A DNA stretch of 64,000 nt. It comes from a virus. Its lineage: Duplodnaviria > Caudoviricetes. The notes under the pieces were generated by a model that was not told where the DNA came from, searched no databases, and was given only the letters and a program-made list of their open reading frames with translations. Below, piece after piece: positions 1,643-50,874 of the stretch (position 1 is its first letter; each line of letters opens with the position of its first letter). A program made the position numbers and the translations under genes. The stretch covers positions 1 to 64,000 of IMG/VR virus record IMGVR_UViG_3300037067_013150. One strand, written 5' to 3'.

Positions 1643-1830
1643 TCTTCAGGTCTTTGAATAGAATAATACAATTTAATATTTTTATTTTTTGCTATTAACT
1701 CCAAGACTAATAAATAATCTTGGAGTTTTTGCATTGTTGAGAAAGAATATAATACTGTATTTCCATTTTGAATGGTCTTTAAAAGAAAGAAAGGTTCGAT
1801 TCCGGCTTCATATTTTTCATGTAAAGGCAT
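1639..1830 (-). CDS. Hypothetical protein
   Basis: 63 aa ORF abutting the upstream minus-strand gene. Confidence 0.65.
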   Translation of the reverse strand: MPLHEKYEAGIEPFFLLKTIQNGNTVLYSFSTMQKLQDYLLVLELIAKNKNIKLYYSIQRPED

Positions 1831-1831
1831 T

Positions 1832-2392
1832 TTACCACCTATAATTTATAACTGCATCAATACCAGCAGAATACATAGATTTATCTATAGCACCATAAGC
1901 TCTTACTTGGGGGCCAAATCCGAAGTTTCCCCACCAATGGGTATAAGATATATTAGCTCCAACTAATGGAGTAAATTTTTTATTTAAATTATCATAAGTA
2001 AATAATAAACCCAATCCAAATCCTATTTGATTTTTAAGAGTAGGACAACTAAATATTAGATCAAAGTTTTTAATAGTTTGTACATAATGTGTTTTAGCAG
2101 TAACTTCTATCTTTTTATTATTAATCATTTTTGCAGATAGATCTATAGGATCATTATATTTAGGATCTTTAATAATTATTGTAGTCTTTTCTTTTGGTTT
2201 CTCACTTGGTTTAATTTCTGTTGGTGCTGTAGGTTTACAGGTTTTTGTTCCTAAACAATAAAAACCCAAATCATTAACTCCAAGTATAACTATACAAATT
2301 GATCCAATTATTAATACTTTTTTCCATGTTGCCATAGATGCTAATTTAGTTGGTATTGCTTTAAATGCATCTAAAAATTCTTGTTTTGTCAT
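1832..2392 (-). CDS. Membrane-anchored protein with C-terminal amphipathic beta-strands (spanin-like candidate)
   Basis: Start moved to MTKQEF (GGAG upstream); TM KKVLIIGSICIVILGV, Pro/Lys linker, four alternating beta-strands ending in YRW. Confidence 0.5.
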   Translation of the reverse strand: MTKQEFLDAFKAIPTKLASMATWKKVLIIGSICIVILGVNDLGFYCLGTKTCKPTAPTEIKPSEKPKEKTTIIIKDPKYNDPIDLSAKMINNKKIEVTAKTHYVQTIKNFDLIFSCPTLKNQIGFGLGLLFTYDNLNKKFTPLVGANISYTHWWGNFGFGPQVRAYGAIDKSMYSAGIDAVINYRW

Positions 2393-2488
2393 ATTATTTA
2401 TCTCCAGAAAGTACAAATTTTCTATACTTATTATAGGAAGTAAGTATATAATAATAATGTACTGAAGATAGTTAATATTAAAGCAAAT

Positions 2489-2656
2489 TTATTTATTATT
2501 TTTTATTATTTCTTCCATTCCTTTAATAAACAACTCCAAATTACTACCCATAATAGTCATGTTCTTTTTCTTAACAATTTCCTTATATTGTTCATATAAA
2601 GGAAACTTATCTTTAGTAAGTGATATTAAGATATCATGCTTAGTTTTATTTTTCAT
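2489..2656 (-). CDS. Small protein, ribbon-helix-helix-like
   Basis: 55 aa MKNKTKHDILISLTKDKFPLYEQYKEIVKKKNMTIMGSNLELFIKG..., missed by track; GGAGG upstream; ATGA overlap with the upstream stop. Confidence 0.55.
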   Translation of the reverse strand: MKNKTKHDILISLTKDKFPLYEQYKEIVKKKNMTIMGSNLELFIKGMEEIIKNNK

Positions 2657-3195
2657 ACAGCCTCCTTTATGGGATCGATTCTGGCTTTAGCTTTCTTATC
2701 AGCCCACATCTTTTGCATACGTTCTCTACGTTGTTGTCTTACTTCTTCTGATATAACTCGTTTTTGTTTCTCTTTAGGTTTATTATCTATATAACCTTCA
2801 GATGGTGTTTCTTCATATGTTTTAATAATTTTACCATTTCTTGATCGTCCTACAGTAAGAGTACCATTCATAAAATCTTCTTTTTCTTTTTCTTTTTTAC
2901 TTTTCTTTTTAACATCTTCCATAACAGCAATTTCTACCATTTTATTCATTAGTATAACATATTCAGATGTATCATTTATATCCACTATTTCTTTACATTC
3001 TATACATTCAATAATATCAAATATCTTTTTTTGTTCAATAAAATTTATAGCTTTATCATATAATTCTTTTGATATTTTATTAATAGATTTCTTATCATTT
3101 ATATAAATTTGTCTACTTTCTATATAAAATTTTGTTGGTGAATCATTAAGAGATTTATATGACATTTCTAATTTACTATTACATTTTGGACACAT
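2653..3195 (-). CDS. Hypothetical Zn-finger protein with basic C-terminal tail
   Basis: CPKC and CIEC pairs; start at MCPKC after GGAG. Confidence 0.75.
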   Translation of the reverse strand: MCPKCNSKLEMSYKSLNDSPTKFYIESRQIYINDKKSINKISKELYDKAINFIEQKKIFDIIECIECKEIVDINDTSEYVILMNKMVEIAVMEDVKKKSKKEKEKEDFMNGTLTVGRSRNGKIIKTYEETPSEGYIDNKPKEKQKRVISEEVRQQRRERMQKMWADKKAKARIDPIKEAV

Positions 3196-3196
3196 T

Positions 3197-3607
3197 TTAT
3201 TTACTCCCATTGGTTTTTTTAAATATATAATCTAATTCTTTTTGAGTTATTGTTGTAATAAAATAACCATCTCCAATCATAGATAGAAATGTTATTTGAT
3301 ATAATTTATCTGAATTTGTATTTTCAATTGGTTCAATTAATATACGATCAATTTTAGCATAAGGATCTTTATCTATTAAAACTTTTCCATTTAATTGTTT
3401 AAGCTTATCTAATACTATTAAATTTATTATAATACTAAATAGTAGTATAAAATAACAAACATATTTCATTATTAATATAATTATTTTCTTTTTATAAAAT
3501 GGTATTTTAATTTTAAGAATATAAAATATATTTAATATTTTTATTCTAATAAATATTAATAATTTAAGTATTATTATATATATATTATACATTGTTTTAT
3601 ATTTCAT
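3197..3607 (-). CDS. Hypothetical membrane protein (true start may be 3469)
   Basis: Hydrophobic segment YVCYFILLFSIIINLIVL. Confidence 0.65.
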   Translation of the reverse strand: MKYKTMYNIYIIILKLLIFIRIKILNIFYILKIKIPFYKKKIIILIMKYVCYFILLFSIIINLIVLDKLKQLNGKVLIDKDPYAKIDRILIEPIENTNSDKLYQITFLSMIGDGYFITTITQKELDYIFKKTNGSK

Positions 3608-3615
3608 ATGTTTTC

Positions 3616-4035
3616 CTATGTTGATAATTTTTTAATTTCATCATACTTATCTAATATTTCTATAGTTTGAGATTCCATTAATTCTTTTATTTGTTTTGCA
3701 TGGAAATTAATATCAGATATAATTTCTTTATAATTATCTTTAAACAAGTTTTTAGCTTGTGGTGTTTTAAGAAACTCTATTATTTCTTCAAGATTATTTT
3801 GATCTTTTTGTAAATCTCTATTATTTTGTTTTAATGATATTAACTCAGATTGTTTCTTATTACGATTACTCATTATTTGACTTATAAGAATCATTGCAAA
3901 TCCACAAGAACCTGTCATGATATAAAAGAATATAGATAAATATCCTTCTGTTACTTCTCCTAATTTATAAAATAAAAGAAAGGCTATTGCAAACATAGTA
4001 ATTGTAAATAGATCTCTTTTACTTTCTGTACTCAT
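3616..4035 (-). CDS. Hypothetical 2-TM protein with coiled coil
   Basis: Two hydrophobic helices, then heptad-like segment. Confidence 0.8.
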   Translation of the reverse strand: MSTESKRDLFTITMFAIAFLLFYKLGEVTEGYLSIFFYIMTGSCGFAMILISQIMSNRNKKQSELISLKQNNRDLQKDQNNLEEIIEFLKTPQAKNLFKDNYKEIISDINFHAKQIKELMESQTIEILDKYDEIKKLST

Positions 4036-4373
4036 ATATCCTCCTGTATAATATTATTAATTCTTCGTATTTGATCTAAAGATAAAGAACATCTACCGTA
4101 TCTTTCAAAAATTTTTCTTATATTTTCAACTTTGGTAAAATACTCTGTTTCTTCTTCAATTTCTTTCATTGATTCATACACAATGAAGTTAGAACTATAC
4201 TCAGAAATGTCTCTTTTTTCTTCAATAGAAAATTTATATCTGTAATATCCCTTAAGATAAAAATATTTATTTCCTACCTTTTCTATTGTTTCTTCGGTAA
4301 CTAAATCTTTTTCATCTCTACGACGAGCAGCATTACCTACTCTTTTCACATAAACAACTTGTCCTACTTTCAT
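4032..4373 (-). CDS. Hypothetical protein
   Basis: Packed co-directional ORF; no family recognised. Confidence 0.8.
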   Translation of the reverse strand: MKVGQVVYVKRVGNAARRRDEKDLVTEETIEKVGNKYFYLKGYYRYKFSIEEKRDISEYSSNFIVYESMKEIEEETEYFTKVENIRKIFERYGRCSLSLDQIRRINNIIQEDI

Positions 4374-4381
4374 AAAACCCC

Positions 4382-4579
4382 CTAAATTTTTATTCTATAA
4401 TTCAAGGCCCAATTTTGTATAGCTTCTAGAATATATGCATAATAAAAAACATGTCCTCTATGGCATATTCTTTTTTGTATACCCCATATCATTGTCCACT
4501 CTGCTTTTGAAATACTACCACATTGAGGACATTTTATCTTTTCATACTTTTTTCTTGTTTTATACTGTGTAGATATCAT
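4382..4579 (-). CDS. Zn-ribbon hypothetical protein
   Basis: CPQCG...CHRGH. Confidence 0.75.
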   Translation of the reverse strand: MISTQYKTRKKYEKIKCPQCGSISKAEWTMIWGIQKRICHRGHVFYYAYILEAIQNWALNYRIKI

Positions 4580-4782
4580 TAAACCTCCCTATTAGATAAT
4601 AGTTCTTTAACTAAAGGATTTTTATATTCATCTGGAAATTCAGTTAAATAAAATTTAAATACCTCTTCCCAATCAATAATAGATAATGAAAAAAGTATAT
4701 GTCTTATAAAAAATTCATTTTGTTTTGGTATCTTTTCAGCCACTAAAATTTTAATAGCATTAATTTTTTCTATGGGTAGCAT
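4579..4782 (-). CDS. Hypothetical protein
   Basis: Packed co-directional ORF. Confidence 0.75.
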   Translation of the reverse strand: MLPIEKINAIKILVAEKIPKQNEFFIRHILFSLSIIDWEEVFKFYLTEFPDEYKNPLVKELLSNREV

Positions 4783-4800
4783 TAAATTTTCTCCTTTAAT

Positions 4801-5136
4801 CTATTTTTTACCTTTTTTCCATTCTATAAATAATCTTTGAAATTCTCTTTCCGTATATTCCTGTTTAGTTTTAAGTTCTTTTTCTTCTAAATCAGATTTA
4901 TATTCAGTTACCAATTCATCTACATTTTTTGGTATAATTCTTTCTGATATATTATAAATTGCTCTCCCAGCTTTATAAGTAATAAATATAAAAGGAGTAA
5001 GTAGTATAGTAATTATCTTTGCTAATATTTTACTAAAACCATAAATAAATACAGCAGTAAAAAATTCACCTTTCATTTTATTCAAAGTACCCTTATTAAA
5101 ACTTGATTGATATTCATTATAATCATTTGTATACAT
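4801..5136 (-). CDS. Hypothetical membrane protein
   Basis: Central hydrophobic helix. Confidence 0.75.
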   Translation of the reverse strand: MYTNDYNEYQSSFNKGTLNKMKGEFFTAVFIYGFSKILAKIITILLTPFIFITYKAGRAIYNISERIIPKNVDELVTEYKSDLEEKELKTKQEYTEREFQRLFIEWKKGKK

Positions 5137-5141
5137 AATAA

Positions 5142-5303
5142 TTACCCCAAATTTATAAACATTTTTAATAGAAATATAGAAATTGCTACTTTAATAAGAA
5201 ACCTAAATACTGTACCTAATATAGCTGACATTGCTGTATACATACCTAGAAAATTAACAAATCCTTCTACTTTTGTTCCTAATTTCCTATTTACTTCCTT
5301 CAT
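5142..5303 (-). CDS. Small membrane protein (53 aa, not in track)
   Basis: MKEVNRKLGTKVEGFVNFLGMYTAMSAILG...; GGAG upstream. Confidence 0.65.
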   Translation of the reverse strand: MKEVNRKLGTKVEGFVNFLGMYTAMSAILGTVFRFLIKVAISIFLLKMFINLG

Positions 5304-5373
5304 TTAATTTCTCCTTTGATGTACTATTAAAATGTTTAAAAAAACATTTTTAATCTGAACAAATAAATTTTTG

Positions 5374-5628
5374 TTATATGTTCCTATCCTCTTCCTCCTT
5401 CTCTGATGGCGACAGGATCAAAGAAAAACTTGCCAATGATTTTCTAATCTGTATTCCATCGCCTTCATATGATTTATTTTCCCTTAAAACCGTATTGGTT
5501 TCTCCATCAATTATTATTCCCGATATCCATTCGTCATTAACAGATGTCACCTGTAAAACAAATATCCCCTTGCGATCATGAATAACTTTGTATATTTTTC
5601 CAACTTCAATATTCATTTCAATATTCAT
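5374..5628 (-). CDS. Hypothetical protein
   Basis: Start moved to MNIEMNIE after GGAGG. Confidence 0.75.
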   Translation of the reverse strand: MNIEMNIEVGKIYKVIHDRKGIFVLQVTSVNDEWISGIIIDGETNTVLRENKSYEGDGIQIRKSLASFSLILSPSEKEEEDRNI

Positions 5629-5971
5629 CCCCTTCCTCCTTCCCCGATGGCGGGGCGGCAAAATCTGGTGGGCTTAATATCTGCCATGCAATAACCATTC
5701 CTTCCATAACCGGGTATTCAGTTTCCCAATGGTCCCTATATATTTGATTGACATAATCCCCCCGATCGGTGAAGGTTGAGCAATACGTTCCCCTCGCCGG
5801 CAACTCCTCCCGCACATCCCTCCAATCGTAATATTTACATTTCATTTCTTTATCATTTAATAATCTGTGTATTTCTTCAATCTTTTGAGTTAATTCTAAC
5901 GATAGTCTTTCATATAGCCATTCATCAGATTTACCCGGCCATATTTTTCTGGCATCAATTAATTTAGTCAT
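5618..5971 (-). CDS. Hypothetical protein, DUF551-like C-terminus
   Basis: W-x-D-V-x-EELP ... VIAWQxLxxP pattern; locally higher GC. Confidence 0.6.
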   Translation of the reverse strand: MTKLIDARKIWPGKSDEWLYERLSLELTQKIEEIHRLLNDKEMKCKYYDWRDVREELPARGTYCSTFTDRGDYVNQIYRDHWETEYPVMEGMVIAWQILSPPDFAAPPSGKEEGDEY

Positions 5972-6164
5972 ATTAATCTTCCTTCTTATATATATATAAT
6001 TATTCAATTATTTAACTTCAATAAAAGAAAATATCCATTTTGATATATCCCATTTTCCTGAATCCATTGGAACAGATTTCCATACATATCCACCATCATC
6101 AGAATATAAAACTGTTCCGCATTCATGAGCATGTTTTTTATATACTTTTTGTATTTCATCTTTT

Positions 6165-6392
6165 TTATATATTTTTATTTTTTTCATTTTTTATCCCCAC
6201 AATTATTACTTCTTTTGCACTATCTTTTTTATAAGGGCATTCTGATGGAATTATATCGATATGATATGATTGACCAACCAAATTACACGAAATACAATTA
6301 TATGGCTGATCATACTCATTGTCACTATATTCCCATTCTGTGTAGTGCTCGCATTTATTTCTTTCACACCAATCATCATGCCATTCGCTCAT
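6165..6392 (-). CDS. Cys-rich hypothetical protein
   Basis: Start at MSEWHD; CERNKC, CISC, CPY. Confidence 0.7.
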   Translation of the reverse strand: MSEWHDDWCERNKCEHYTEWEYSDNEYDQPYNCISCNLVGQSYHIDIIPSECPYKKDSAKEVIIVGIKNEKNKNI

Positions 6393-6397
6393 ACTTT

Positions 6398-6952
6398 CTA
6401 CTCCTTTCTGAGTGGTAGAATGGGTATATCTCCAGAACATTTACATTCAGTATATTTACCATCATTACCCTCAATTATTATTTCATCTAAATAATATGGA
6501 CACTTCGTATAATATTCTTTATCATTACTTTTATTGTGTTTACAATCTCTCGGATGAATGGTTATAATATTAATTGGTTTTATAGGTGATGTTGAATAAG
6601 ATACATCCACAATACGTTCATAAAAAAATGTAGAACCGCAAGCACCACAATCTATTTCACCATCATCGTTTGTACACTCCCACGAATCCTTATTTTGATG
6701 ACCACAATAAGGACAAGTAATATATTTCTCAAACGTATATTCGTTTTTTTGTCCGGTAGAATCAAATTCAGTTTCCTCTACTCCCATAACTCCTTTCTTT
6801 TGACTTATCATGCAAATTCGATAATGCTTTCCATTATGATATATTATATTAGGAATCATAATCTGAAAATCTGGTAGTTCAAATAAAATCTTGTCTGCTT
6901 CGTAATTATAATCAGTTGCAAACATATTCATATTATATTTATATGCTTTCAT
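6398..6952 (-). CDS. Zn-ribbon phage protein
   Basis: CPYCG and CGACG pairs. Confidence 0.75.
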   Translation of the reverse strand: MKAYKYNMNMFATDYNYEADKILFELPDFQIMIPNIIYHNGKHYRICMISQKKGVMGVEETEFDSTGQKNEYTFEKYITCPYCGHQNKDSWECTNDDGEIDCGACGSTFFYERIVDVSYSTSPIKPINIITIHPRDCKHNKSNDKEYYTKCPYYLDEIIIEGNDGKYTECKCSGDIPILPLRKE

Positions 6953-7245
6953 TAATTTTCTCCTTCATTTGAATTTGAACTTGTATCTACAATTTGTTTT
7001 ACTTTTTGTAATGTATCATATCCATCTGCTTCTGGATCTATTATATTATTAGAATTAGACCAATCATTATAAACCATTAATAGTACAGTTTCAACTTCAG
7101 TAATCCGATTATAAAGTATAGATATTTCATCATAAAGTGCTTGTGATTCTCTATCTATTAATGATAATATTCTAATGGTTCCATAATCCAATTCAGATGG
7201 TTCATTATTACGAATTGATTCTGTATATTTTATAATATTATTCAT
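6952..7245 (-). CDS. Hypothetical protein
   Basis: Packed co-directional ORF. Confidence 0.75.
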   Translation of the reverse strand: MNNIIKYTESIRNNEPSELDYGTIRILSLIDRESQALYDEISILYNRITEVETVLLMVYNDWSNSNNIIDPEADGYDTLQKVKQIVDTSSNSNEGEN

Positions 7246-8417
7246 TATATGATCTCCTTAATATAACCCCATTCAACCATTATTTGATATACTTGTCTCA
7301 TATCTTTCTTATCAAACCATTGAGATAATTGTCTCATAATAAATCCTTTATCTCCATCCGTATCAATTAGCTTGCTGCAATCTGCAACCTTTTGTCTAAA
7401 CAAGATTTTAGCTATACCAATTTGTATATCCTTTTTAATACGTTCCCAAGACTTATCAATTTGAAGTTGAGAATACTCTTCTTTGAGCAATTCAATTACA
7501 TGATTAAAGAAAGTCTCTGTAGTAATATCATCTCCTGAGTAATCTTCTACTGCATTTAAAGTAGTATTAATAATAGAATAATGGGGAATCGAATCATTTA
7601 CCCAATGAATTGCTTCAATATCTTCCGGCTTGCATTTGAATTGCATATACTCATCTGTTTCTGTTTGAACATATAATACAAATCCTTCAGATCCAGATAC
7701 AGAACCATCCTCATTATGAACATTATTATCTTTAGCTTCTTTTCTTAACTCATCATAAAATTTAGTAATATCTGCAGTAGAAGTCAATTCCTTTAAACAC
7801 TCTAAAGAAGGTTTAACATCAAAAATTTGGGGTATAAGAACTAGATGTCTTGATTGTTCTACTCCAAACAATAAACGAGTATCAAGAGATACATCATATT
7901 TAATAAGTAAAGGATTCCTAGTACCATACATTTCAAATGATAAAGACCATTTCCCTTCTAATACATCTTTAGGTTTTCTCAAATCAGGATACATTTTAAG
8001 AACATCATTCCACATTTCCAAAAAATTACCAAATTTGCTTTCTTTAAGTATAGGAGTTAAACGAGTTTTAAAAGTAACATATCTTACATTATCTGCATCA
8101 GCATAAGAATATATACACACGTTCGTTCCATCTAATTTTGTATACACGTATACTCTTTTAAATTTAGGCCATTTATAATTTCTATCTCCTATATCTGAAG
8201 TAGAAAAGGGATAATGAAGTTTAGGTGTACAATAAATTACTTGGGGTTCGACTTCCCTTCCATTCACTTTATATATAACCAAAGCTCCATATCTATGATC
8301 AGAACGTCTACATAAATAACCTGATATTATATTATTATTATATGGATCATTTTCTTCAAAATGATTTAATTCATTATCTTTAATATCTAATAGTTTAGCT
8401 GCATCTTCTATATTCAT
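7245..8417 (-). CDS. ATP-dependent RNA ligase
   Basis: Nucleotidyltransferase motifs I (YTKLDGTN), Ia (FKTR), III (FEMYG), IV (SEGFVL), V (FKCK); close to Pnk. Confidence 0.85.
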   Translation of the reverse strand: MNIEDAAKLLDIKDNELNHFEENDPYNNNIISGYLCRRSDHRYGALVIYKVNGREVEPQVIYCTPKLHYPFSTSDIGDRNYKWPKFKRVYVYTKLDGTNVCIYSYADADNVRYVTFKTRLTPILKESKFGNFLEMWNDVLKMYPDLRKPKDVLEGKWSLSFEMYGTRNPLLIKYDVSLDTRLLFGVEQSRHLVLIPQIFDVKPSLECLKELTSTADITKFYDELRKEAKDNNVHNEDGSVSGSEGFVLYVQTETDEYMQFKCKPEDIEAIHWVNDSIPHYSIINTTLNAVEDYSGDDITTETFFNHVIELLKEEYSQLQIDKSWERIKKDIQIGIAKILFRQKVADCSKLIDTDGDKGFIMRQLSQWFDKKDMRQVYQIMVEWGYIKEII

Positions 8418-8427
8418 AGAATCCTCC

Positions 8428-8988
8428 TTAAAAATTATATCTCATTTTACAATTTATTTTTGTAATAAAAACTCTAGATAATCCAAATAATTCACCAATT
8501 TCTTTATGAGTATATTTTTTTAATTCTAACAATTTAATAATCTTATTATAAACATCTTTATTTATTTTTGCTCGTGAATTTTTATATCCAATATCATCTG
8601 TTCCATGTAATTTTTTTCTTAATAAATTATCTTTTTGTGTTTCCCACATTAAATTTAATGATTTATTATTTAAACAGTTTCCATCTAAATGAGATGCTGT
8701 ATATTTTTTAGTTGGAGGTAATCCATGAAAAGTCATACAAATGATACGATGTAAAGTTGTAGTAAAATATTTTCCTTTTTCTACTCTTAAAGATATATGT
8801 AAATAATTGTTATTATTTAATTTACGTGGTATTAGTTTTTTTAATTTATTTGTATCTATATGACTATCCTTTCCTGTAACCCAGGCTGAATAAATATTAC
8901 CATTTATATCTGCATAATATCCCTTATATACAGGAACAGATTTCATTATATTTTTATCATATTTAACCAGTTTATTTTTAGTTTTCAT
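8428..8988 (-). CDS. HNH homing endonuclease (NUMOD4-HNH type)
   Basis: VPVYKGYYADINGNIYS N-terminus; LHRIICMTFHG...SHLDGNCLNN...NLMWETQKDN; C-terminal HTH-like segment. Confidence 0.9.
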   Translation of the reverse strand: MKTKNKLVKYDKNIMKSVPVYKGYYADINGNIYSAWVTGKDSHIDTNKLKKLIPRKLNNNNYLHISLRVEKGKYFTTTLHRIICMTFHGLPPTKKYTASHLDGNCLNNKSLNLMWETQKDNLLRKKLHGTDDIGYKNSRAKINKDVYNKIIKLLELKKYTHKEIGELFGLSRVFITKINCKMRYNF

Positions 8989-8989
8989 A

Positions 8990-43109: not shown

Positions 43110-43631
43110 CTATTGCCATCTCTTTTGTCTATTTGATTTCTTTTTAAATATTTTCCAAAAATATTCTATTTTTTCTTTATCTTGATTCATATACATATAC
43201 TGATATACTCTGTCCTTTGTTATTGAAGTAATATTTGAATCTCTAATAATATCTTCCAATGTATCATATTTATCATCAATTTTTTTAACTTCTTTATTAT
43301 ATTTTTTTACTGATTCAGCATTAAGAAGATCAGAAGGATTATCTGGTATTCCTACTTTACTCATATCTCCACGTTTAATAGCATTAACTATTATAAGAGG
43401 AATTTTATTCGGATATTTTAAAGTACATTCTTCTTTCTCATTAGAAGAAAATGTAGCAGAATTAATATTAAAATACTTTTTAATAGCACCATGACCTATT
43501 ATATCCTCATAAAATTCAGTAGTAAGATATTTTTTTAATTGTTCTCCTTTATAAGTATCAAGTTCTTTATTACTTATAAAATAAACTTTATCATTAATAT
43601 TATCTTCAATCCACGATACAAAATCACACAT
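43110..43631 (-). CDS. Hypothetical phage protein (MCDFVSW...GHGAI)
   Basis: GGAG upstream. Confidence 0.8.
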   Translation of the reverse strand: MCDFVSWIEDNINDKVYFISNKELDTYKGEQLKKYLTTEFYEDIIGHGAIKKYFNINSATFSSNEKEECTLKYPNKIPLIIVNAIKRGDMSKVGIPDNPSDLLNAESVKKYNKEVKKIDDKYDTLEDIIRDSNITSITKDRVYQYMYMNQDKEKIEYFWKIFKKKSNRQKRWQ

Positions 43632-43662
43632 ATATTTTCTCCTATTATAAATTAATTATTAA

Positions 43663-43929
43663 TTATACTACAACTAAAGTAATCTCATCTCCTTTTTTAA
43701 GTTTCTTTACCATTATCTTTGCTTGAATAGAAGGATAAGTCCAACATTTATTCTCTCCAGGTTTAGATAATGACATTACTTCAAACTTAGAATCACTAGA
43801 AGTTCTCATTACAATTTCACCAAAATAATTACAAGACCTATTAACTATTACAGCTATTTCGCATGGTTTTAATTCTCCAATTCCTATTAAACCATCTTCT
43901 GCAAAATAATTTTCTTTTATTTTAAACAC
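43663..43929 (-). CDS. Hypothetical protein (GTG start)
   Basis: GGAGG upstream; palindromic terminator at 43957-43978. Confidence 0.75.
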   Translation of the reverse strand: MFKIKENYFAEDGLIGIGELKPCEIAVIVNRSCNYFGEIVMRTSSDSKFEVMSLSKPGENKCWTYPSIQAKIMVKKLKKGDEITLVVV

Positions 43930-44145
43930 CTCAAACCTCCTTAATATTATTAAAAAAAGCTAGTTAATTAACTAGCTTAATTTGATAACATTAAATACTC
44001 AAATGAATACCTTTTATTTCTTTTTCAAGCAATCTATTATCAAACTTCAATTGCCTAATCTCCCTATTAATAGGATCTTCAATCAACTTCATTATTCTCT
44101 TTCTACGTCCTATTATAAACATAGGTAAACCTCCAAATATTATTA

Positions 44146-44307
44146 TTAATTAAATTTTACATCCCTATTTGATAGGGTTTTTTCTTTACCACAACAAGGA
44201 CATTTAAACTTATCCTTATTATTATTATTAATATTACTTACAATTTTCATCTCTTCTTTACATTTATTACAACGATGTATAGAATTATAATATTTAATAG
44301 TCTTCAA
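44146..44307 (-). CDS. Small Zn-ribbon protein (TTG start, not in track)
   Basis: GGAGG; CNKC...CPCCG. Confidence 0.65.
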   Translation of the reverse strand: MKTIKYYNSIHRCNKCKEEMKIVSNINNNNKDKFKCPCCGKEKTLSNRDVKFN

Positions 44308-44373
44308 TCAAACCTCCTTAATTATTACTAAAAAAGCCTTTAATATCTCTATTAAAGGCTAACTTACTACTAA

Positions 44374-44844
44374 CTAAACAAGCCCAGTAGATGTATATAC
44401 TTTTATATATACCTTATCATCAGGCTTCTTAAGACTAACTCCAATAATAGGAGCCATAGCATCAAAGTCAGTCATAGCCTTAATAACCTCAAGATTCAAT
44501 TGCTCAACAGTTTTGATACAATCAAACTTCTTAAGATTCTTAAGCTGTGCTATAGTAAATACTTCATCAGGTACAATAAGGCTCGATTTCCCCTTGGCCT
44601 CCACAGAGATCTCACCATTGGTAAACTTAACCTTATGTTCAAAATCTGTATCTTTATTAGCAAGACACAATGTTTTCAACGCATTCTCTGTAACTTCAAG
44701 TTCTGTCTTAAGAGGATCAATAGCTTTATTAAGCCTTGTTTTAATAGCAATGATCTCCTTGTTAGCTTCCTCTTCCTTCTCTGCAATCTTGTTGTTAAGC
44801 TTTGCTATCTTCAATAGATAGTTGTTGTACATAGTTGAATCCAT
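44374..44844 (-). CDS. Mu Gam-like host-nuclease inhibitor
   Basis: Long N-terminal coiled coil, F.NGEIS, IKT.EQLN.E.I, IGVSL..PDD.VYI pattern. Confidence 0.55.
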   Translation of the reverse strand: MDSTMYNNYLLKIAKLNNKIAEKEEEANKEIIAIKTRLNKAIDPLKTELEVTENALKTLCLANKDTDFEHKVKFTNGEISVEAKGKSSLIVPDEVFTIAQLKNLKKFDCIKTVEQLNLEVIKAMTDFDAMAPIIGVSLKKPDDKVYIKVYTSTGLV

Positions 44845-44858
44845 TTATTTTCTCCTTG

Positions 44859-45689
44859 TTATTTTATATTTTTATAAATAGCACTAATATATTTTATAGC
44901 TTCATTATATTCTATATAATATTTATTATTTTTATGTTTTTTAGTAACCAATTTTTTAAATTCTTTTATTGTACAAAATTGACAACCACAAAGAACTATT
45001 ATTCCTTTTGTTGTAAAATAAAAAATAGCATGAGAATTTCTTGAACCAATATGATTAATAGTAATACTTCCTCTTCCTATTAATTTATATCCATTAAGTG
45101 TTCTTTTACCTTTTATAAATTGATCACCTTTTACATGTTGAACCCCTTCTATAACTTGATTACCTTTTATAAATTTATAACCTTCTATAGATTGATAACC
45201 TTCTATAGATTGATAACCTTCTATAGATTGATAACCTTCTATAGATTGATTACCTTCTATAGATTGATAACCTTCTATAGATTGATAACCTTCTATAACT
45301 TGATTACCTTTTATAAATTGATCACCTTTTACATATTGACTACCTTTTATAACTTGATTACCTTTTACATATTGACTACCTTTTATAACTTGATTACCTT
45401 CTATATATTGATAACCTTTTATAACTTGATTACCTTTTATAACTTGATTACCTTTTATAAATTGATTACCTTTTATAAATTGATCACCTTTTACATATTG
45501 ACTACCTTTTATAACTTGATGACCTTCTATATAAATTGATTCATTAAAAATACAATCACAATTTATTATTATTGATTTATTAAATTCATATCTATTATTT
45601 TTTATATTAAAAAATTCTTTTTTTATAAATACATTTTGTTTATCAAAATCATTTTTTGAAAATATATATTTATCTTTTAATTCTTTCAT
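44859..45689 (-). CDS. Hexapeptide-repeat beta-helix protein
   Basis: 23 [IV][EK]GxQx repeats; C-terminal IGSRN...CGCQ...EF...H...EY domain. Confidence 0.85.
   Translation of the reverse strand: MKELKDKYIFSKNDFDKQNVFIKKEFFNIKNNRYEFNKSIIINCDCIFNESIYIEGHQVIKGSQYVKGDQFIKGNQFIKGNQVIKGNQVIKGYQYIEGNQVIKGSQYVKGNQVIKGSQYVKGDQFIKGNQVIEGYQSIEGYQSIEGNQSIEGYQSIEGYQSIEGYQSIEGYKFIKGNQVIEGVQHVKGDQFIKGKRTLNGYKLIGRGSITINHIGSRNSHAIFYFTTKGIIVLCGCQFCTIKEFKKLVTKKHKNNKYYIEYNEAIKYISAIYKNIK
45117..45530 (-). repeat. 18-bp coding tandem repeat (about 23 units)
   Basis: Plus-strand unit e.g. GATAACCTTCTATAGATT, several exact copies. Confidence 0.95.
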
Positions 45690-46054
45690 TTTAAAACCTT
45701 CTTGTATTATTCTAATTCTTTTATAATAAAAGTTATAGGTATATTACTCTTTTTATTTTCATATTAATATTCTCCTCTATATATAAGTTACATTACCACA
45801 ATCAAAACAAACATATGATTGTGGTTTCCAATCCTTAAATGATCTATAATGTTTCTTATCCATTATAATCATCTTACCACCACAATTATTACATTTCATA
45901 TTAATACTATCCCTATTATTGCCATTATAATGATAATAAACTGTACAAAAAAACCCGTATAATTATCATCCGCATAATATTGAAGCATTCCTACAAACCT
46001 ACCAGAAATAAGTAAACATAATAGAATGATTATATATATTTTCATTATAATCTC

Positions 46055-46264
46055 CTATAATGTATAATTATTACACCATTCTTCAAACTTAAGAATGGCA
46101 TTAGCTATTTGTGGTATATATGTAGCATACTTATCTTCTAATTTCCTCCTTTCTTTATCACCAAAGTATTCATATACTAATCCCTTCTTCATAACTTTAA
46201 CCATTAATTGACCTTTAATCTTGTTAATCTCTAACTCACAATCATATAAACTTTCACTTACCAT
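46055..46264 (-). CDS. Hypothetical protein
   Basis: GGAGG upstream. Confidence 0.75.
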   Translation of the reverse strand: MVSESLYDCELEINKIKGQLMVKVMKKGLVYEYFGDKERRKLEDKYATYIPQIANAILKFEEWCNNYTL

Positions 46265-46274
46265 TTAAACCTCC

Positions 46275-46580
46275 TTATTTCTTTTTATTCTTATTTGAAA
46301 AAGGTTTCTTCAAACTGCCCCCAAAATCTGTTATAGTATATGTACCATTAAATTGTTTAACTATAACTTTACCATCAAAATCATTAAAACATAAAGCTCT
46401 TCCAAATACAATACCTATAGATCTATTACATGATAATAGCTCTACCTCTTTACCTCCAGAATATAAAAGTATTGATTCATAACTCTCTTTATTATTAACA
46501 AGATAATAAAGAGGTGAAAAAGCATCTGATATAAATATAAGACAAATTAATATTATTGATAATTTTAATATAAAATTCAT
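46275..46580 (-). CDS. Secreted hypothetical protein
   Basis: Signal-peptide-like N-terminus. Confidence 0.75.
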   Translation of the reverse strand: MNFILKLSIILICLIFISDAFSPLYYLVNNKESYESILLYSGGKEVELLSCNRSIGIVFGRALCFNDFDGKVIVKQFNGTYTITDFGGSLKKPFSNKNKKK

Positions 46581-46671
46581 TTATCCTCCTTATAATATTA
46601 TTATTAATTATCAACAAGTAGCAGTAAAAAGGATCGAATCCCCTTTACTGCTCTATATTCATAATTACTAA

Positions 46672-47361
46672 TTATTCAGGACCAATATTTTCTTCTCCAT
46701 AAAATTCATCCCTTGTATCTGAATAAATATCATATACTTTCTTCGCATCTATAGGACTTATCATCATATCCTCTGTATTATTTATAGGTAAGTCACTACC
46801 ATCTTTCTTTGTTATCCCACTCTCTCCAGGATATAACATAACAGAATGATAATCAAATGGATATTTATACCAATAATATCCTAACTTGTTATAATTAACC
46901 ATACCTATTGGTAATTTTATATTATCTGGTATATTTATATATAAACTACTATCAGGTCTTAATATCTCATCTATTAATCCTAAAACATGACCCAATTCAT
47001 GTAATATTATTCCCCTATCAAAATTATTAGAAAATATTATAAAATTAGTATCATTAAAATATCCTAATGAAGATGTTGCTGCTAATATATGTCCAGCATA
47101 CTTTATCTTAAAAATCTTTAATACTTTACAATCATCTTCTATATGTTTATCATCTGCTAATTGAATATTTATAAACTTAACCCTAAATTGTGATGCTATT
47201 TCCCATAGCATCATACAAGATTGTACTTCTAAACTCTCTTCTATTGATAAACCTATTACCTCATATGGGATATGATGATTAGGCCAAACATCTTTTGGTT
47301 CTACCATACATCTCATATTAATTATATTAAATAATATTATTAATACTATAAGAAATCTCAT
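46672..47361 (-). CDS. Astacin-like metzincin peptidase (M12A-like), secreted or lipoprotein
   Basis: WPNHHIPY, HELGHVLGLIDE, RPD, Met-turn DYHSVMLY; hydrophobic N-terminus ending in Cys. Confidence 0.85.
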   Translation of the reverse strand: MRFLIVLIILFNIINMRCMVEPKDVWPNHHIPYEVIGLSIEESLEVQSCMMLWEIASQFRVKFINIQLADDKHIEDDCKVLKIFKIKYAGHILAATSSLGYFNDTNFIIFSNNFDRGIILHELGHVLGLIDEILRPDSSLYINIPDNIKLPIGMVNYNKLGYYWYKYPFDYHSVMLYPGESGITKKDGSDLPINNTEDMMISPIDAKKVYDIYSDTRDEFYGEENIGPE

Positions 47362-47498
47362 CTCTTTCACCTCCTTTATTAATTTAAAATCTTAATGTTG
47401 CTTACTATATATATAGTAAGCAAAGGTTAAAACTTTAAATGTAATTAAAGCTGTGTATCTGTCTTAATACCAACAGGCTCATAAAGATACCAATTTGT

Positions 47499-47693
47499 TT
47501 ATTTATTTTCAGAAAGTTGTTCTATTTTAGTCTCATAATATTTAGAAAAACAATTAAATATTTCTTTAAGATCTAATTGTTTATCTAATGAATTAATAAT
47601 TTTAATAAAATCCCCAACAGAAAGTTTAGAATCTATTTTAATCGTATCATCTGATATAGATTTAAGTTTTATTATCGCTTCAGAAACTTTCAT
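47499..47693 (-). CDS. Hypothetical protein
   Basis: Co-directional ORF. Confidence 0.7.
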   Translation of the reverse strand: MKVSEAIIKLKSISDDTIKIDSKLSVGDFIKIINSLDKQLDLKEIFNCFSKYYETKIEQLSENK

Positions 47694-47715
47694 ATATATC
47701 TAACCTTAATATTAA

Positions 47716-47979
47716 TTAATAATTATTTAAAGGAACCAGCTTACCATTAATAAACTTATTACGTTTTGTAATCCCTTGACCTCTTCCCCAATCAAAACGT
47801 TCATTAGTAGGATGAGCTTTTTCTATCATATCTGTATAGTTTGCTATATTTTCATCAATCATATCGCCTGCAGATACAAACGTAAATACAGATAAACAAT
47901 ACATAAATCCATTCTTTTCCGCTTTCTCAATCTCCTTTAATGCTTTCTTTAATTCTTTAGTCTCAATACAAAATTCCAT
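47716..47979 (-). CDS. Hypothetical protein
   Basis: GGAG upstream. Confidence 0.75.
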   Translation of the reverse strand: MEFCIETKELKKALKEIEKAEKNGFMYCLSVFTFVSAGDMIDENIANYTDMIEKAHPTNERFDWGRGQGITKRNKFINGKLVPLNNY

Positions 47980-48272
47980 ATCTTACTCCTTATTATTAAT
48001 ATTTATATTACTTATTCATATAATATACTATATAACTGATTATTCATAAAATTCTTTAATGCCTATTATAACTAATAAGCATTAAAAAATAGCCTATTAT
48101 TATAAATAGGCTAATAACTATCTCTTACATAAACCCATACATAGAAGCAATTTGCATTACCTTACTTGCTTCCTTAAACATCTCCCTCTCTTTACTTGTT
48201 AGATGTGAAGCTTTCATTATTAAAACTTTCATATTAAAACCTCCAATCTATATTAAAAGTGTCGATTCCCCG

Positions 48273-48647
48273 TTAAACAATTAACTTCTTCTTCAAAACC
48301 CTACTTGCATATCTCCTTAATTGCTTAACAATAAGATCAGCATACTTTTGAGCCTCTTTTTTATTAGTCGCTCTACAAAAATTAACATAGTTACTTAATT
48401 CACTACAACATGAAGCTAAAGGACACTTATATATACACCAACATCTACCATTAAAAGATTTATCTCTGTCTTCTCTTTGTTTTAAATATTCACATAAAGG
48501 ACATAAACATCTCATATAATATATATAACTAATAACAGATCTATGCTTTACTTGAAGCTTACTCGTATATCCTTTGTCCCTTATATGTTCCCATAACCGT
48601 ATAGTTAATTCAACCGCTTCTATTAAACTTAATCTCTTATAATACAT
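48273..48647 (-). CDS. Cys-rich hypothetical protein (CPLC...CPL..C)
   Basis: GGAGG upstream. Confidence 0.75.
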   Translation of the reverse strand: MYYKRLSLIEAVELTIRLWEHIRDKGYTSKLQVKHRSVISYIYYMRCLCPLCEYLKQREDRDKSFNGRCWCIYKCPLASCCSELSNYVNFCRATNKKEAQKYADLIVKQLRRYASRVLKKKLIV

Positions 48648-48732
48648 TTATACCTCCTTTATTATTAATTTTTAAATACTATTAAAAAATAGCTGATATT
48701 AATAATAATATCAGCCTGATTTTAATTTTACT

Positions 48733-48966
48733 TTATACCTCATATTCTGACACAATTACCTTTTTCTTTTCTATTTTCTCTTCTTTTTTAATCTTACGCT
48801 TCTCTACAAAATCTTCTATTAATTTCTCCGCACTCTCTTTATCTATAAATCCTACAACTTCATAATCAGGACTGGCTACTAATTCTTTTGTTAATGTTAT
48901 CCATATCCCTAATACTTTTCTCTGGGCTGAATAATAACCATCCTTTTTTATTATCCTTACTTTCAT
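48733..48966 (-). CDS. Hypothetical phage protein (YSAQRKVLGIW)
   Basis: Co-directional ORF. Confidence 0.75.
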   Translation of the reverse strand: MKVRIIKKDGYYSAQRKVLGIWITLTKELVASPDYEVVGFIDKESAEKLIEDFVEKRKIKKEEKIEKKKVIVSEYEV

Positions 48967-49012
48967 TTCTTATACCTCTTATTATAATTAATTTTTAAAT
49001 CCCGACCGATTT

Positions 49013-49681
49013 TTAAAGATTGTTCCTCCTCAATACCCTCTGATTATAATCTTTATAATGATCATAATCCTCATCAGCTCTACCACTATTAATATAATCA
49101 TTCATTGCTTCTATCTCTGATATAGTTGGTTCTCTCTCCCTTTCCTCTGAAATATACTTCTCATATTCCTCTGCCATCTTCCTCTCTGTTTCATAATATT
49201 TATCCTGTCTCCTTATCTCTTCCCTTCCACATCTTTTAGAACATACATGATTAATCTCATACTCACCATTAACTTCATAACCCTTATTAGATGAATAGGC
49301 TTTGTTACATATACAACATGAATATACTTCAGATATATAATACTTACATATCTTCCCTATGTAATCTTCTATATCATCAATATACTTATTATTAATAATA
49401 TGATTAATCTTATTTATAATAAATAACTTATTTATTCCCTTATTAAATAACCATTTATTATAATATCTCTCATATCTATCCACTATATTATCATAATATC
49501 CTTCTGACATCTTTGCACCGCAATCCTCTATACTTGCTGTTTCACCTGGGTCCCAAAAAGTTTGACGAGATCCTTTAGATCTATAACCTATACTATGTTC
49601 ACAACTCCAACATGAATGTTTACCTTTGTATATTCTCTTATTATCCTTAAAAAACTTATTTATTTTATTAAAAAGTAACAT
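49013..49681 (-). CDS. Cys-rich hypothetical protein
   Basis: CWSC, CCIC, CSKRC; GGAGG upstream. Confidence 0.75.
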   Translation of the reverse strand: MLLFNKINKFFKDNKRIYKGKHSCWSCEHSIGYRSKGSRQTFWDPGETASIEDCGAKMSEGYYDNIVDRYERYYNKWLFNKGINKLFIINKINHIINNKYIDDIEDYIGKICKYYISEVYSCCICNKAYSSNKGYEVNGEYEINHVCSKRCGREEIRRQDKYYETERKMAEEYEKYISEEREREPTISEIEAMNDYINSGRADEDYDHYKDYNQRVLRRNNL

Positions 49682-49738
49682 TCTTTACCTCCTTTACTAT
49701 CTTTACTTTACTATCTTTAGATCTCTTACTACCTCCTT

Positions 49739-49930
49739 TCATTCTTTACTATTCATAAATTCTTCTATCTTGTCTATTAATGATACATCTTCTATTGGTT
49801 CTCCTTCTTCCAATATTAGTGTATTAGTATAAGATTGATTAACATTATATGTCCTTATTACAGAAAAATATCGTCCATCTAATTCAACACTAAATGTTGT
49901 TTGTTCTTGTTCTACATTTACACTATTCAT
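49739..49930 (-). CDS. Hypothetical protein
   Basis: GGAG upstream. Confidence 0.75.
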   Translation of the reverse strand: MNSVNVEQEQTTFSVELDGRYFSVIRTYNVNQSYTNTLILEEGEPIEDVSLIDKIEEFMNSKE

Positions 49931-50030
49931 TCTTTACTCCTTTTATTTAATTTTTATTAATTTTAATAATAAATTTAAATAAGTTATTAACATATGTTTA
50001 TAACTTGTTAATAACTTTGTTAATAAATTA

Positions 50031-50207
50031 TTATTTGTATCTTTTCCTAAACATACCAAATTTATGAGTAGCATAATATACATTATAATGCTCATCATAA
50101 TCTTCTATTACAACAGTAAACCAATCTATACTACCATACCACGGAGTCTTAAAACCAAATTGGATACATAAGGCTCGATTCCCTTTTAATGCTATCTTAA
50201 TTTCCAC
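50031..50207 (-). CDS. Small protein (58 aa, GTG start, not in track)
   Basis: AGGAGG + MEIKIALKGNRALCIQFGFKTPWYG... Confidence 0.65.
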   Translation of the reverse strand: MEIKIALKGNRALCIQFGFKTPWYGSIDWFTVVIEDYDEHYNVYYATHKFGMFRKRYK

Positions 50208-50373
50208 CTTTAATCCTCCTATTATTATTAAATTTATTAATTTAAACCGTTATTCATCTTCCCGATCTCTCCCATGATAAAAAATTCTGGATAATTATTA
50301 ATAATATAATTATTATAATTATATTATTAATAAAAAGCCCTTGCCTACATGACATAAGCAAGGGCATTGAAAT

Positions 50374-50432
50374 ACCGGTTTCTAAACCAGTATATTAAAC
50401 CGGTTTCTAAACCAGTATATTAAACCGGTTTC
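50374..50432. repeat. 25-bp tandem repeat (two units plus a partial)
   Basis: ACCGGTTTCTAAACCAGTATATTAA x2 + ACCGGTTTC, overlapping the stop of 50420-50773. Confidence 0.9.
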
Positions 50433-50773
50433 ACAAACGTAAATCTTTCTTGTGTGCTGTACACATAACCCTTTGCCTTAAGAAAATCATTATAAGGCTT
50501 TTTGAAATGTGTAGGAAGTTTCTCTGGCAGGAGTTCCTCATTGAAGAACACAGGTACTTTATTTTCATCATCCCATTTAGCACAAACTCTTTTGAGCATA
50601 TCTTCATCAGTAGGGATACGACGAACCCACTTATGATCTTCACTCATAAGAACCCATGCTTTAAGGTCCAGTTCTTCCTTTGCTCTTTCAGCTTTTTGAA
50701 GAGCTAAAGTAACAACTTCAAGCTGTTTTTTGTACCTTTTGATTTGTTCTTCTTGATACTGTTTACCATTCAT
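50420..50773 (-). CDS. Hypothetical early-type protein
   Basis: GGAG upstream. Confidence 0.8.
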   Translation of the reverse strand: MNGKQYQEEQIKRYKKQLEVVTLALQKAERAKEELDLKAWVLMSEDHKWVRRIPTDEDMLKRVCAKWDDENKVPVFFNEELLPEKLPTHFKKPYNDFLKAKGYVYSTQERFTFVKPV

Positions 50774-50874
50774 AATAAACTCCTTTTTAAATTATTATTT
50801 TTATTTAACAGTTTTAAAACTGTTAAGTAGTCCCTGAAAGGTTCGATTCTCCGTTTCAGGGCTAACTTAATAGC

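Follow-up and report, generated by a model that had tools for sequence, protein, structure and literature searches.

A strand-polar 16-base word in the leftward gene block of an uncultured phage, probably a nick-associated motif

The gene block and its word

The window analysed here, the whole stretch of 64,000 nucleotides, belongs to a 75,168-bp record and contains a leftward gene block (1639-52704, coding on the minus strand) made up of accessory cassettes with many terminators. Its genes include those for tRNA repair (RNA ligase and PNK), two DNA MTase-type genes (11604-12335, an N6_N4_Mtase; 14635-16710, D12-like with NPPF) and an HNH endonuclease gene. Copies of one word, read as GGNTCGANTYY on the plus strand, run through genes and intergenic DNA of this block. 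The HNH gene and the copies are listed below.

8428-8988, minus strand, HNH_3 + HTH endonuclease gene, 186 aa, candidate nickase
1793-1803, minus strand, sense form GGAATCGAACC, within a 63-aa ORF
2672-2682, minus strand, sense form AGAATCGATCC, in the final 19 nt of a gene, next ATG 15 nt on
7585-7595, plus strand, sole reverse-oriented near copy, GGAATCGAATC on the plus strand, one mismatch, within the RNA ligase gene
8245-8255, minus strand, within the RNA ligase gene
12947-12957, minus strand, in a gene, frame 0, ARIDP
15704-15714, minus strand, middle of a 691-aa MTase-like gene, RWEIEP
17352-17362, minus strand, within a 68-aa ORF
19381-19391, minus strand, intergenic
20611-20621, minus strand, one mismatch, within a 70-aa ORF
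23873-23883, minus strand, within a 166-aa gene
28505-28515, minus strand, middle of a 538-aa DUF2201/VWA gene, frame 2
31831-31841, minus strand, within an ArdC-like gene, frame 1
36179-36189, minus strand, intergenic or in a small ORF
38418-38428, minus strand, intergenic hairpin, twin of the 40809 element
40809-40819, minus strand, intergenic hairpin
42445-42455, minus strand, intergenic, ATG 28 nt downstream
44580-44590, minus strand, within a Mu Gam-like gene
46631-46641, minus strand, tip of a long intergenic hairpin
48259-48269, minus strand, one mismatch, intergenic
50172-50182, minus strand, 25 nt into a 58-aa ORF
50840-50850, minus strand, loop of an intergenic hairpin

GGNTCGANTYY has 18 exact matches, all on the plus strand between 1793 and 50850, against 0.36 expected by chance (dinucleotide shuffles, maximum 2). 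Variants with one mismatch add two further plus-strand copies, at 20611 (GGTTCGATACC on the plus strand, sense form GGTATCGAACC) and 48259 (GTGTCGATTCC on the plus strand, sense form GGAATCGACAC), and bring the total to 20. In the full record the exact matches number 18 forward and 0 reverse, and the remaining ~23 kb (52-75 kb) holds zero copies. The gene-strand consensus, A-N-S-S-R-R-A-N-TCGA-N-CC-Y, covers 16 positions with ~24 bits, and position 0 is a purine in every copy. With a position matrix derived from the 20 copies, these score 20.6-27 bits; the runner-up on both strands of the record is the reverse near copy at 7581-7596 (17.4 bits), and apart from these no site exceeds 12 bits. 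The record has 50 TCGA tetramers and the gene block 37; 20 of them lie within the word. Inter-copy spacing has a CV of 0.53, a value equally even in just 0.2% of random placements.

An earlier note, made from the letters of this DNA, had claimed 20 same-strand copies, a single near-match on the other strand at 7583-7595 (the 7581-7596 site), less than one chance copy per strand, and about half of the TCGA tetramers within the motif. All of this is borne out, with the coordinate of every copy confirmed as one of 18 exact or two one-mismatch sites; the shuffle and both-strand check that it proposed gave counts far above the shuffled background, on a single strand across 75 kb. Its further claims, that protein selection is insufficient and that the signal is strand-polar and acts at the level of nucleic acid, hold as well. 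Twelve copies lie in genes and eight between them, all three reading frames are used, the four largest genes of the block all carry copies, and the word-carrying genes show no paralogy among them. A synonymous-codon shuffle that keeps all protein sequences predicts 0.23 in-gene copies, with 11 observed. The MTase-like family consensus is RWG[LI], and the phage reads RWEIEP where the word sits; the RNA ligase of genome G001, 75% identical, has no word at the equivalent place and reads GGATGTCGAGTCT. Judged against these homologues, the word overrides the protein consensus where the gene that carries it has relatives. The 16-base word is genuine and selected at the DNA level.

The placement of the copies bears on the rather unlikely reading of the word as a phage-specific transcription signal of the leftward early/accessory arm, that is, a promoter or start site used by a phage RNA polymerase or sigma factor whose gene would lie elsewhere in the genome. 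Every copy is co-oriented with the genes, the word territory (1793-50850) matches the gene block with its edge less than 2 kb from the strand switch, intergenic DNA is enriched in copies (8 of 20 versus 13% of the DNA, P 0.002), five stand 15-28 nt upstream of a start codon and ahead of the ribosome site, and the constant purine at position 0 would also suit such a signal. T7 has 17 co-oriented promoters, a density comparable to that of the word; like promoters of the T7 group, the word has about one co-oriented copy per 2.5 kb, a length of at least 16 nt and some copies in upstream genes. T7 promoters, however, cluster irregularly and precede transcription units, whereas here the spacing is even and most copies lie deep in genes. 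The twelve in-gene copies, some of them 850-1080 nt away from the next start, speak against a transcription signal, as does the fact that copies are not positioned after the 9-17 intrinsic terminators on the minus strand. No RNA polymerase or sigma gene was seen among the scanned ORFs of the 75-kb fragment, which is ~35% of the genome.

The word also resembles the tRNA T-arm/T-loop (GGTTCGAATCC) and integrase attachment cores, and 10 of the 20 copies fit GGTTCGANTCC on the plus strand. ARAGORN finds 0 tRNAs in the window, in agreement with the earlier statement that no copy lies in a cloverleaf. Unlike a T-arm, the word has no cloverleaf and no 5-bp T-stem, the bases flanking GG/CC show neither pairing nor stem covariation, and the base facing the invariant T54 is free (A9 T7 G2 C2; position 54 itself reads T10, A7, G2, C1 over the 20 copies); T-arm identity was rejected on the cloverleaf, the T-stem and the variable T54. 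Unlike integrase attachment cores, none of the copies lies at a tRNA gene, and no integrase was found among the 59 block ORFs of at least 95 aa. The word is in itself a near-palindrome, GG-N-TCGA-NT-CC, and its T-loop likeness is best taken as accidental.

A polar DNA-translocase guide (Chi-, KOPS- or packaging/ejection-type) could also show strict polarity and even spacing, and the T-loop likeness, together with the RNA ligase and PNK genes, could point to a signal in the RNA, for instance an endonuclease site or a stretch that pairs with T-arms or fragments of tRNAs. We consider both very improbable. The ~24 bits over 16 positions compare with Chi- and KOPS-type words of just 5-8 nt that are frequent in the host chromosome; no Chi or KOPS known to us comes near this specificity, and the phage encodes Mu Gam. 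The unconstrained base facing T54 and the missing stem covariation count against an RNA signal, as do stable hairpins, which hold intergenic copies only and are absent from in-gene copies. Neither a translocase guide nor an RNA signal would lead one to expect that DNA contigs end at one fixed base, as described below.

Contig ends in independent assemblies

Three assemblies were compared with the record: ENA ERZ27247358 (identical phage, independent), Logan SRR6484325 and, as a second sample, Logan SRR18595300. The ENA contigs span 2682..1794, 3459..7590, 7585..40819, 42500..48239 and 48251..54955. Five of these ten ends fall within the 11-mers of the word, which make up 0.31% of the record (P about 7e-11). 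Since one contig spans an untranscribed divergent promoter gap, the sample is DNA.

The ends follow a fixed geometry. Downstream of a broken copy, each of the three contigs has position 0, the first purine of RRANTCGANCC, as its first base, and those upstream of a break stop 3-9 bases into the word (+9 and +5 in ENA, +3 in Logan SRR6484325). At copy 1793 the ENA contig ends at 1794 (+9), and at copy 2672 it starts exactly at 2682 (position 0), so that this contig, 889 bp long, covers exactly one segment between neighbouring copies. In the near copy, the 33-kb ENA contig has its start exactly at 7585 and its neighbour an end at 7590, and at copy 40809 the 33-kb contig starts at 40819 (position 0, with one non-matching T ahead); a Logan SRR6484325 contig ends in the same copy at 40816 (+3). 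At copy 48259, contigs end 4-8 nt past the word, in an AT-rich 9-nt direct repeat. Contigs sharing one break overlap by 4-6 nt and not by k-1 (140 nt).

Most copies remain intact: 17 of the 21 copies are crossed unbroken in the ENA assembly, 13 of them within the 33-kb contig, and 4 of 21 are broken; the broken copy 2672 and the unbroken copy 12947 have identical 15-mers. In Logan SRR18595300, contigs cross 10 copies and 0 of 6 contig ends lie at the word.

The reverse near copy at 7585, antisense to its gene, breaks too, with mirror-imaged geometry, as would be expected of an enzyme acting on DNA rather than of a signal in the transcript. The break in this antisense copy, and the occurrence of breaks in a DNA assembly, thus argue further against a transcription signal. 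The suggestion in the earlier note that the mRNA pairs with tRNA T-arms is not supported: this copy acts like the others in the assemblies, the T54-facing base is free, and cloverleaf and T-stem are missing. Among the four explanations that note had offered, a polar protein-recognition site comes nearest; the contig ends of independent assemblies, which fall on one fixed position of the word, point more narrowly to a site of cleavage or nicking. Its Chi/KOPS-type version is very improbable.

Double-strand cleavage, or a site of site-specific or nick-stimulated recombination, could produce breaks at the same places; recombination sites were among the explanations in the earlier note and are retained as a rival. 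Segments of the accessory arm would then be exchanged, inverted or excised, and the breaks would stem from more than one junction partner or from a discrete 33.2-kb DNA species between the inverted copies 7585/40819. Several features are in line with this: the 33,236-bp contig lies between the sole inverted pair of copies and starts with the word at either end, the 889-bp contig matches one inter-motif segment, the flanks are assembled in far shorter contigs than the 33-kb segment, suggestive of an abundance step at the words, and accessory cassettes with many terminators make up the block. Nevertheless, none of the 59 block ORFs of at least 95 aa belongs to a recombinase, integrase or invertase family, and 20 direct repeats of such a site would delete the genome. 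Where contigs meet at a branch point, an overlap of k-1 would be expected, far more than the few nucleotides seen, and the upstream contigs continue 3-9 nt into their own native copy rather than that of a partner. In addition, copies sit inside conserved genes, which align collinearly with homologous genes, and not at cassette borders. This explanation is therefore unlikely in our view.

Site-specific DNA modification, by a phage MTase or an unseen hypermodifying enzyme, might also hinder polymerases, with a loss of reads over some copies. The core, TCGA, is well known as a target of methylation, and the block carries two DNA MTase-type genes; the MTase target put forward in the earlier note gained nothing in its favour beyond these genes. 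Over-representation, a single orientation and even spacing are not required of a modification target, sequencing is not blocked by simple methylation, and a one-strand lesion leaves the other strand copyable. A strand break agrees better with contigs that always start at position 0 but end variably on the opposite side. Modification is very improbable.

The proposed nick site and its candidate enzyme

On balance, the word is probably a new motif associated with nicks. We propose that it is recognised by a strand-specific DNA endonuclease of the phage, which would make localized single-strand interruptions, as in T5, the phiKMV-like phages and the tf/LUZ24 group. The site on the minus strand would be 5'-A-N-S-S / R-R-A-N-T-C-G-A-N-C-C-Y-3', with the break at the slash, just 5' of the first purine. 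The discontinuity would thus be a nick on the minus strand, the coding strand of the 1.6-52.7 kb block. We infer a nick because fragments broken at a nick and then end-repaired always have the 5' terminus of the nicked strand as their start; those from the opposite side stop a few variable bases beyond the nick, and this is the pattern seen here. Since a one-strand nick leaves the other strand for spanning reads, complete breaks need an added assumption, either preferential shearing at nicks or cutting of both strands. Heavy nicking would occur at some sites only, comparable to the major and minor nicks of T5. Against a nick site stand the 17 copies crossed unbroken, the second sample with no contig end at the word, the intergenic enrichment of copies and the edge of the word territory close to the strand switch.

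The homing endonuclease I-HmuI cuts a single strand. This HNH enzyme (1U3E) is the sole solved-structure match to the product of gene 8428-8988, which belongs to Pfam HNH_3, and the I-HmuI-like protein may be the nicking enzyme. Relative to G001, the gene is an insertion between the RNA ligase and PNK genes. As a point against this candidate, HNH homing endonucleases are frequent in phages. No close relatives bearing the word were found; G001, L045-L051 and L054 share no more than single genes with this phage and are without the word.

Comparable motifs have been described in other phages. Phage tf has 14 nicks at TACT/RTGMC, on a single strand and unevenly distributed (PMC3517423), and Rembedalsseter carries 13 copies of WACTRTGAC on one strand, mostly in genes (PMC11780129). 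The motif of these tf/LUZ24/Rembedalsseter Pseudomonas phages is a short word with two degenerate positions and 13-14 copies per 45 kb (PMC3517423, PMC11780129), which similarly keeps to one strand, far above chance, mostly in genes and in any frame, and is uneven along the genome. The word described here is unrelated in sequence and longer (about 16 nt), and its phage is AT-rich, large and uncultured. Its copies are evenly spaced in one arm and enriched intergenically, whereas the LUZ24-group motif has no intergenic enrichment. Nicks were measured directly in those phages and are deduced here from contig ends; their motif is conserved in 60 relatives, in contrast to the lack of word-bearing relatives found in our case.

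T5 is nicked at R/GCGCRGG, at the 5' edge of the word (PMC3517423), and resembles the present phage in its one-strand breaks at the 5' edge of a conserved word and in the varying occupancy of sites; T5-like occupancy differences would explain why 4 of 21 copies break the assembly. The short T5 word is also present on the un-nicked strand, so that extra context is needed (PMC3517423), while here no further match to the word exists on either strand. The phiKMV-like motif (CGACNNNNNCCTA/CTCCGG) is likewise a long bipartite word with free positions, and nicks are limited to one strand of a genome whose genes are all unidirectional. Only 3-4 sites per genome occur there, however, and the nicks are reported on the non-coding strand, whereas the break proposed here would be on the coding strand.

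As a long shot, we speculate that the nicks could be programmed entry points for recombination or strand-displacement copying, spaced so that one strand of the arm is split into ~2.5-kb units. Segments bounded by copies, such as the 33.2 kb between the inverted copies 7585/40819, might then exist as separate or over-replicated DNA species, and the arm might be reshuffled there between co-infecting phages. An I-HmuI-type homing nuclease would in that case have been domesticated as a genome-wide nickase.

The word and its gene block

Record G000 is a 75,168-bp IMG/VR contig (IMGVR_UViG_3300037067_013150) with a completeness rated at about 35% and a G+C content of 26.7%, of which the window represents the first 64 kb. 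Between 1.6 and 52.7 kb the genes are carried by the - strand and preceded by strong AGGAGG ribosome sites, and the + strand shows a strong negative GC skew there. The block forms an arm of accessory or early type, and Gam and SLT among its genes indicate a bacterial host. A search of its 59 ORFs of at least 95 aa brought up no RNA polymerase, sigma factor or recombinase.

Genes of the 1.6-52.7 kb block (all - strand)
RNA ligase and polynucleotide kinase
ArdC-like anti-restriction protein
MoxR-type ATPase with a DUF2201/VWA partner
two DNA methyltransferase-type genes
Mu Gam
SLT transglycosylase
astacin peptidase
ParB-like protein
8428-8988, HNH endonuclease

Other features of the record
44859-45689 (-), gene composed of about 22 units of 18 nt in tandem, each encoding (I/V)KG(N/S/D/Y)Q(V/F/Y/S), and matching PHROGs of tail-fibre and collagen-like type; 276 aa in the window versus 246 aa in the ENA contig L058, so that the repeat number is polymorphic
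34440-36008, 25642-26049, 36473-37435 and 38700-39817, paralogous small genes of two families, one with three tandem members and an HNYPL...GIRxDG motif, the other with five members and a zinc-ribbon-like CPFC...CxxC motif
52710-52830 and 53370-53480, long palindromes (TTGATACCATACGGGTGTATGGTATCAA and a near repeat) in the divergent control region between gene blocks, which also holds several ATACCGGTAT palindromes; these look like operators
about 53570, rightward sigma-70-like promoter (TTGACT...TATAGAT)
73706-73777 (-), outside the window, tRNA-Pro(TGG), the only tRNA of the record, which accounts for a GGATCGAAC match at 73718

The earlier note had described a word over-represented on one strand, and this is fully borne out: GGNTCGANTYY has 18 matches, all on the + strand, against 0.36 expected, and two more copies differ by one mismatch. 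The other 23 kb of the record hold no further copy on either strand, and in the opposite orientation there is only one near copy, at 7581-7596, with one mismatch. Aligned on the gene strand, the copies give an information content of about 24 bits and the consensus A(-4) N S S R R A N T C G A N C C Y, the first purine of RRANTCGANCC being position 0. In a matrix scan the 20 copies score 20.6-27 bits, apart from all other sites, and the reverse copy (17.4 bits) is the sole other site above 12 bits.

Twelve copies lie within genes, in all three frames, and eight between genes, compared with 13% intergenic DNA (P 0.002). The genes concerned are not paralogues of each other, in agreement with the claim that they are unrelated, and protein selection is indeed not the cause, since shuffling synonymous codons with the proteins kept leaves 0.23 in-gene copies expected versus 11 observed. 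Spacing ranges from 668 to 5573 nt (CV 0.53) and is evener than 99.8% of random placements. No analogous word was found in the other gene blocks of the record; a second candidate, AAGGTNATCAA (23 copies), is in fact an 18-nt tandem repeat within one gene.

A tRNA T-arm reading of the word is not supported. ARAGORN detects no tRNA in the window and the flanks form no T-stem, in agreement with the earlier statement that no copy lies in a cloverleaf; the base that corresponds to the invariant T54 varies freely among the copies, and the two free positions show no covariation. The word is a near-palindrome, GG-N-TCGA-NT-CC, which is sufficient by itself to explain its resemblance to GGTTCGAATCC.

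Homologous genes and the search for relatives

One of the genes that carry a copy encodes a 691-aa methyltransferase-like protein, in which this phage has RWEIEP (encoded by GAAATCGAACC) and 12 homologues have RW(G/N/R)(L/I); the contigs with its nearest homologues (49-67% identity) contain zero copies of the word. Likewise, a 75%-identical homologue of the RNA ligase in another phage has GGATGTCGAGTCT at the place of the word. By these comparisons the word is imposed on the genes that carry it; it is selected at the DNA level and probably lineage-specific.

14635-16710 (-), 691-aa methyltransferase-like protein with an NPPF motif and no Pfam match, from a large family of ~700-aa proteins with members of 35-40% identity in Asgard archaea (Heimdall-, Hod-, Atabeyarchaeia), Nitrososphaerota MAGs and phage contigs

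A search for related loci with the RNA ligase returned a single match, the phage contig G001, which has only rnl and pnk in common with this phage and one chance match to the word; a candidate word of its own, AGAAGTTA, proved to be a tail-fibre protein repeat. Related loci for the 308-aa protein, the ATPase, the paralogue family, HNH and Gam yielded nothing usable among viral and JGI contigs. Identity to cultured phages reached 44% at most by tblastn, blastn gave no match, and the exact 15-mer GGATCGATTCTGGCT has 31 matches in IMG/VR, each single and unrelated. Altogether, no relative bearing the word was found in the viral, JGI, IMG/VR or cultured-phage searches.

Contig ends at the word

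Contigs of the identical phage (100% identity) were retrieved from other assemblies by look-up of window proteins. ENA ERZ27247358 is a MEGAHIT k141 assembly, and Logan SRR6484325 apparently stems from the same reads.

Contigs of the identical phage
ENA, 2682..1794, 889 bp
ENA, 3459..7590
ENA, 7585..40819, 33,236 bp, with an additional non-matching T at the 40819 end
ENA, 42500..48239
ENA, 48251..54955
Logan SRR6484325, 40816..42329
Logan SRR6484325, 48255..50403

Five of the ten ENA contig ends fall within the 21 eleven-mers, which make up 0.31% of the record (P 7e-11). Taking the word's own direction, all contigs on the downstream side of a broken copy start exactly at the first purine (AGAATCGATCC at 2682, GGAGTCGATCC at 40819 and, at the reverse copy, GGAATCGAATC at 7585 in + strand reading), and those on the other side end at +9, +5 and +3. 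Where two contigs meet at one break, their overlap is 4-6 nt instead of k-1, which implies that no reads bridge the broken copies. The 889-bp contig coincides exactly with one segment between copies. One contig spans the 0.9-kb divergent promoter gap, which identifies the data as DNA. Elsewhere this phage's contigs stop at a palindrome, a tandem repeat or AT-rich runs, and for another low-coverage phage of this sample the contig ends have arbitrary sequences.

50375-50430, 25-nt tandem repeat CCGGTTTAATATACTGGTTTAGAAA directly upstream of a strong terminator, where two independent Logan assemblies end

Adapter trimming was rejected as a cause of these ends because GATCG is absent in copies 1793 and 7585, a restriction-enzyme library because HinfI, TaqI and Sau3AI do not cut at position 0, and repeats of at least k because none are present. 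The same ENA assembly crosses 17 copies unbroken, 13 of them in the 33-kb contig, and a broken copy can match an unbroken one at all of 15 nt; in a second sample, SRR18595300, ten copies are crossed with no break.

A probable nick-associated motif and its candidate enzyme

For T5, nicks at specific sites of the phage DNA have been on record for more than 50 years; for phiKMV- and LUZ24-type phages they are a more recent finding. No purpose is known for them, nor, in most cases, an enzyme. We hold with moderate confidence that the word is a new nick-associated motif, and rank this reading above the alternatives considered below. The geometry of the contig ends would be accounted for by a nick between -1 and 0 on the strand that reads as the word: after breakage at the nick and end repair, the downstream piece would always acquire a blunt terminus at the nicked strand's 5' end, and the upstream piece would be filled in or trimmed to the snap point of the intact strand, a few variable bases off. 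The extra T at 40819 may be the first adapter base (dA tail) left on many fragments with one common end. As a one-strand nick alone would leave bridging reads, either occupancy would vary by site and sample, as in T5, or both strands would be broken. That the breaks are junctions of cleavage or recombination seems unlikely to us; such junctions would suit the 33-kb piece, which is bounded by the only inverted copy pair and may be a separate or more abundant DNA species.

We regard a phage-specific promoter or transcription signal as slightly less probable still; the enrichment of copies between genes and the motif territory, which coincides with the leftward gene block, speak for it. The mirror-image break at the reverse copy is unfit for a signal read in a transcript and would fit an enzyme reading double-stranded DNA. 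Intrinsic terminators are frequent on the - strand (17 versus 3 expected in 35-54 kb; 9 in the block by a stricter scan), no regular order of copies before or after them was seen, and for several copies the next start codon is 850-1080 nt away. Intergenic copies lie in unusually stable hairpins (P 3e-4), for in-gene copies folding is no better than when the word is placed in random contexts (P 0.38), and no fold is common to all copies; the essential signal thus does not include the hairpins.

38390-38460 and 40780-40860, twin intergenic elements with common 15- and 22-nt flanks, stems GACUCUC/GAGAGUC and GACUUCC/GGGGAGUC whose 3' arm is the 5' half of the motif, and outer pairing AAGG...CCUU

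As the candidate nickase we put forward, as a hypothesis, the product of the HNH gene at 8428-8988 (-), a 186-aa protein with HNH_3 and HTH parts that has a single relative of solved structure, I-HmuI (1U3E, E 2.5e-6), an enzyme that nicks one strand only. In the otherwise unrelated G001, rnl and pnk are adjacent (L010:7283-7319; 74-78% DNA identity), and here the HNH gene is inserted between them, so that by gene order it resembles a mobile, free-standing homing endonuclease gene that has entered a tRNA-repair cassette shared by horizontal transfer.

Motifs of this kind are known. T5 carries major and minor nicks at R/GCGCRGG, and phage tf has 14 TACT/RTGMC sites, which all lie in one strand and of which one half holds 11 (PMC3517423); in Rembedalsseter and 60 relatives, 88% of the WACTRTGAC copies lie inside genes (PMC11780129). 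New here are the lineage and its word, the layout, and detection via assembly breaks. The phage, AT-rich, uncultured and probably large, would be an unrelated lineage with a word of its own that is much more specific. The layout is unusually clean, with even spacing, a single arm, one reverse copy and a plausible nickase gene adjoining. Nick-type sites would then be detectable from the break points of public metagenome assemblies, which would offer a cheap screen for nicked phage genomes without phage isolation.
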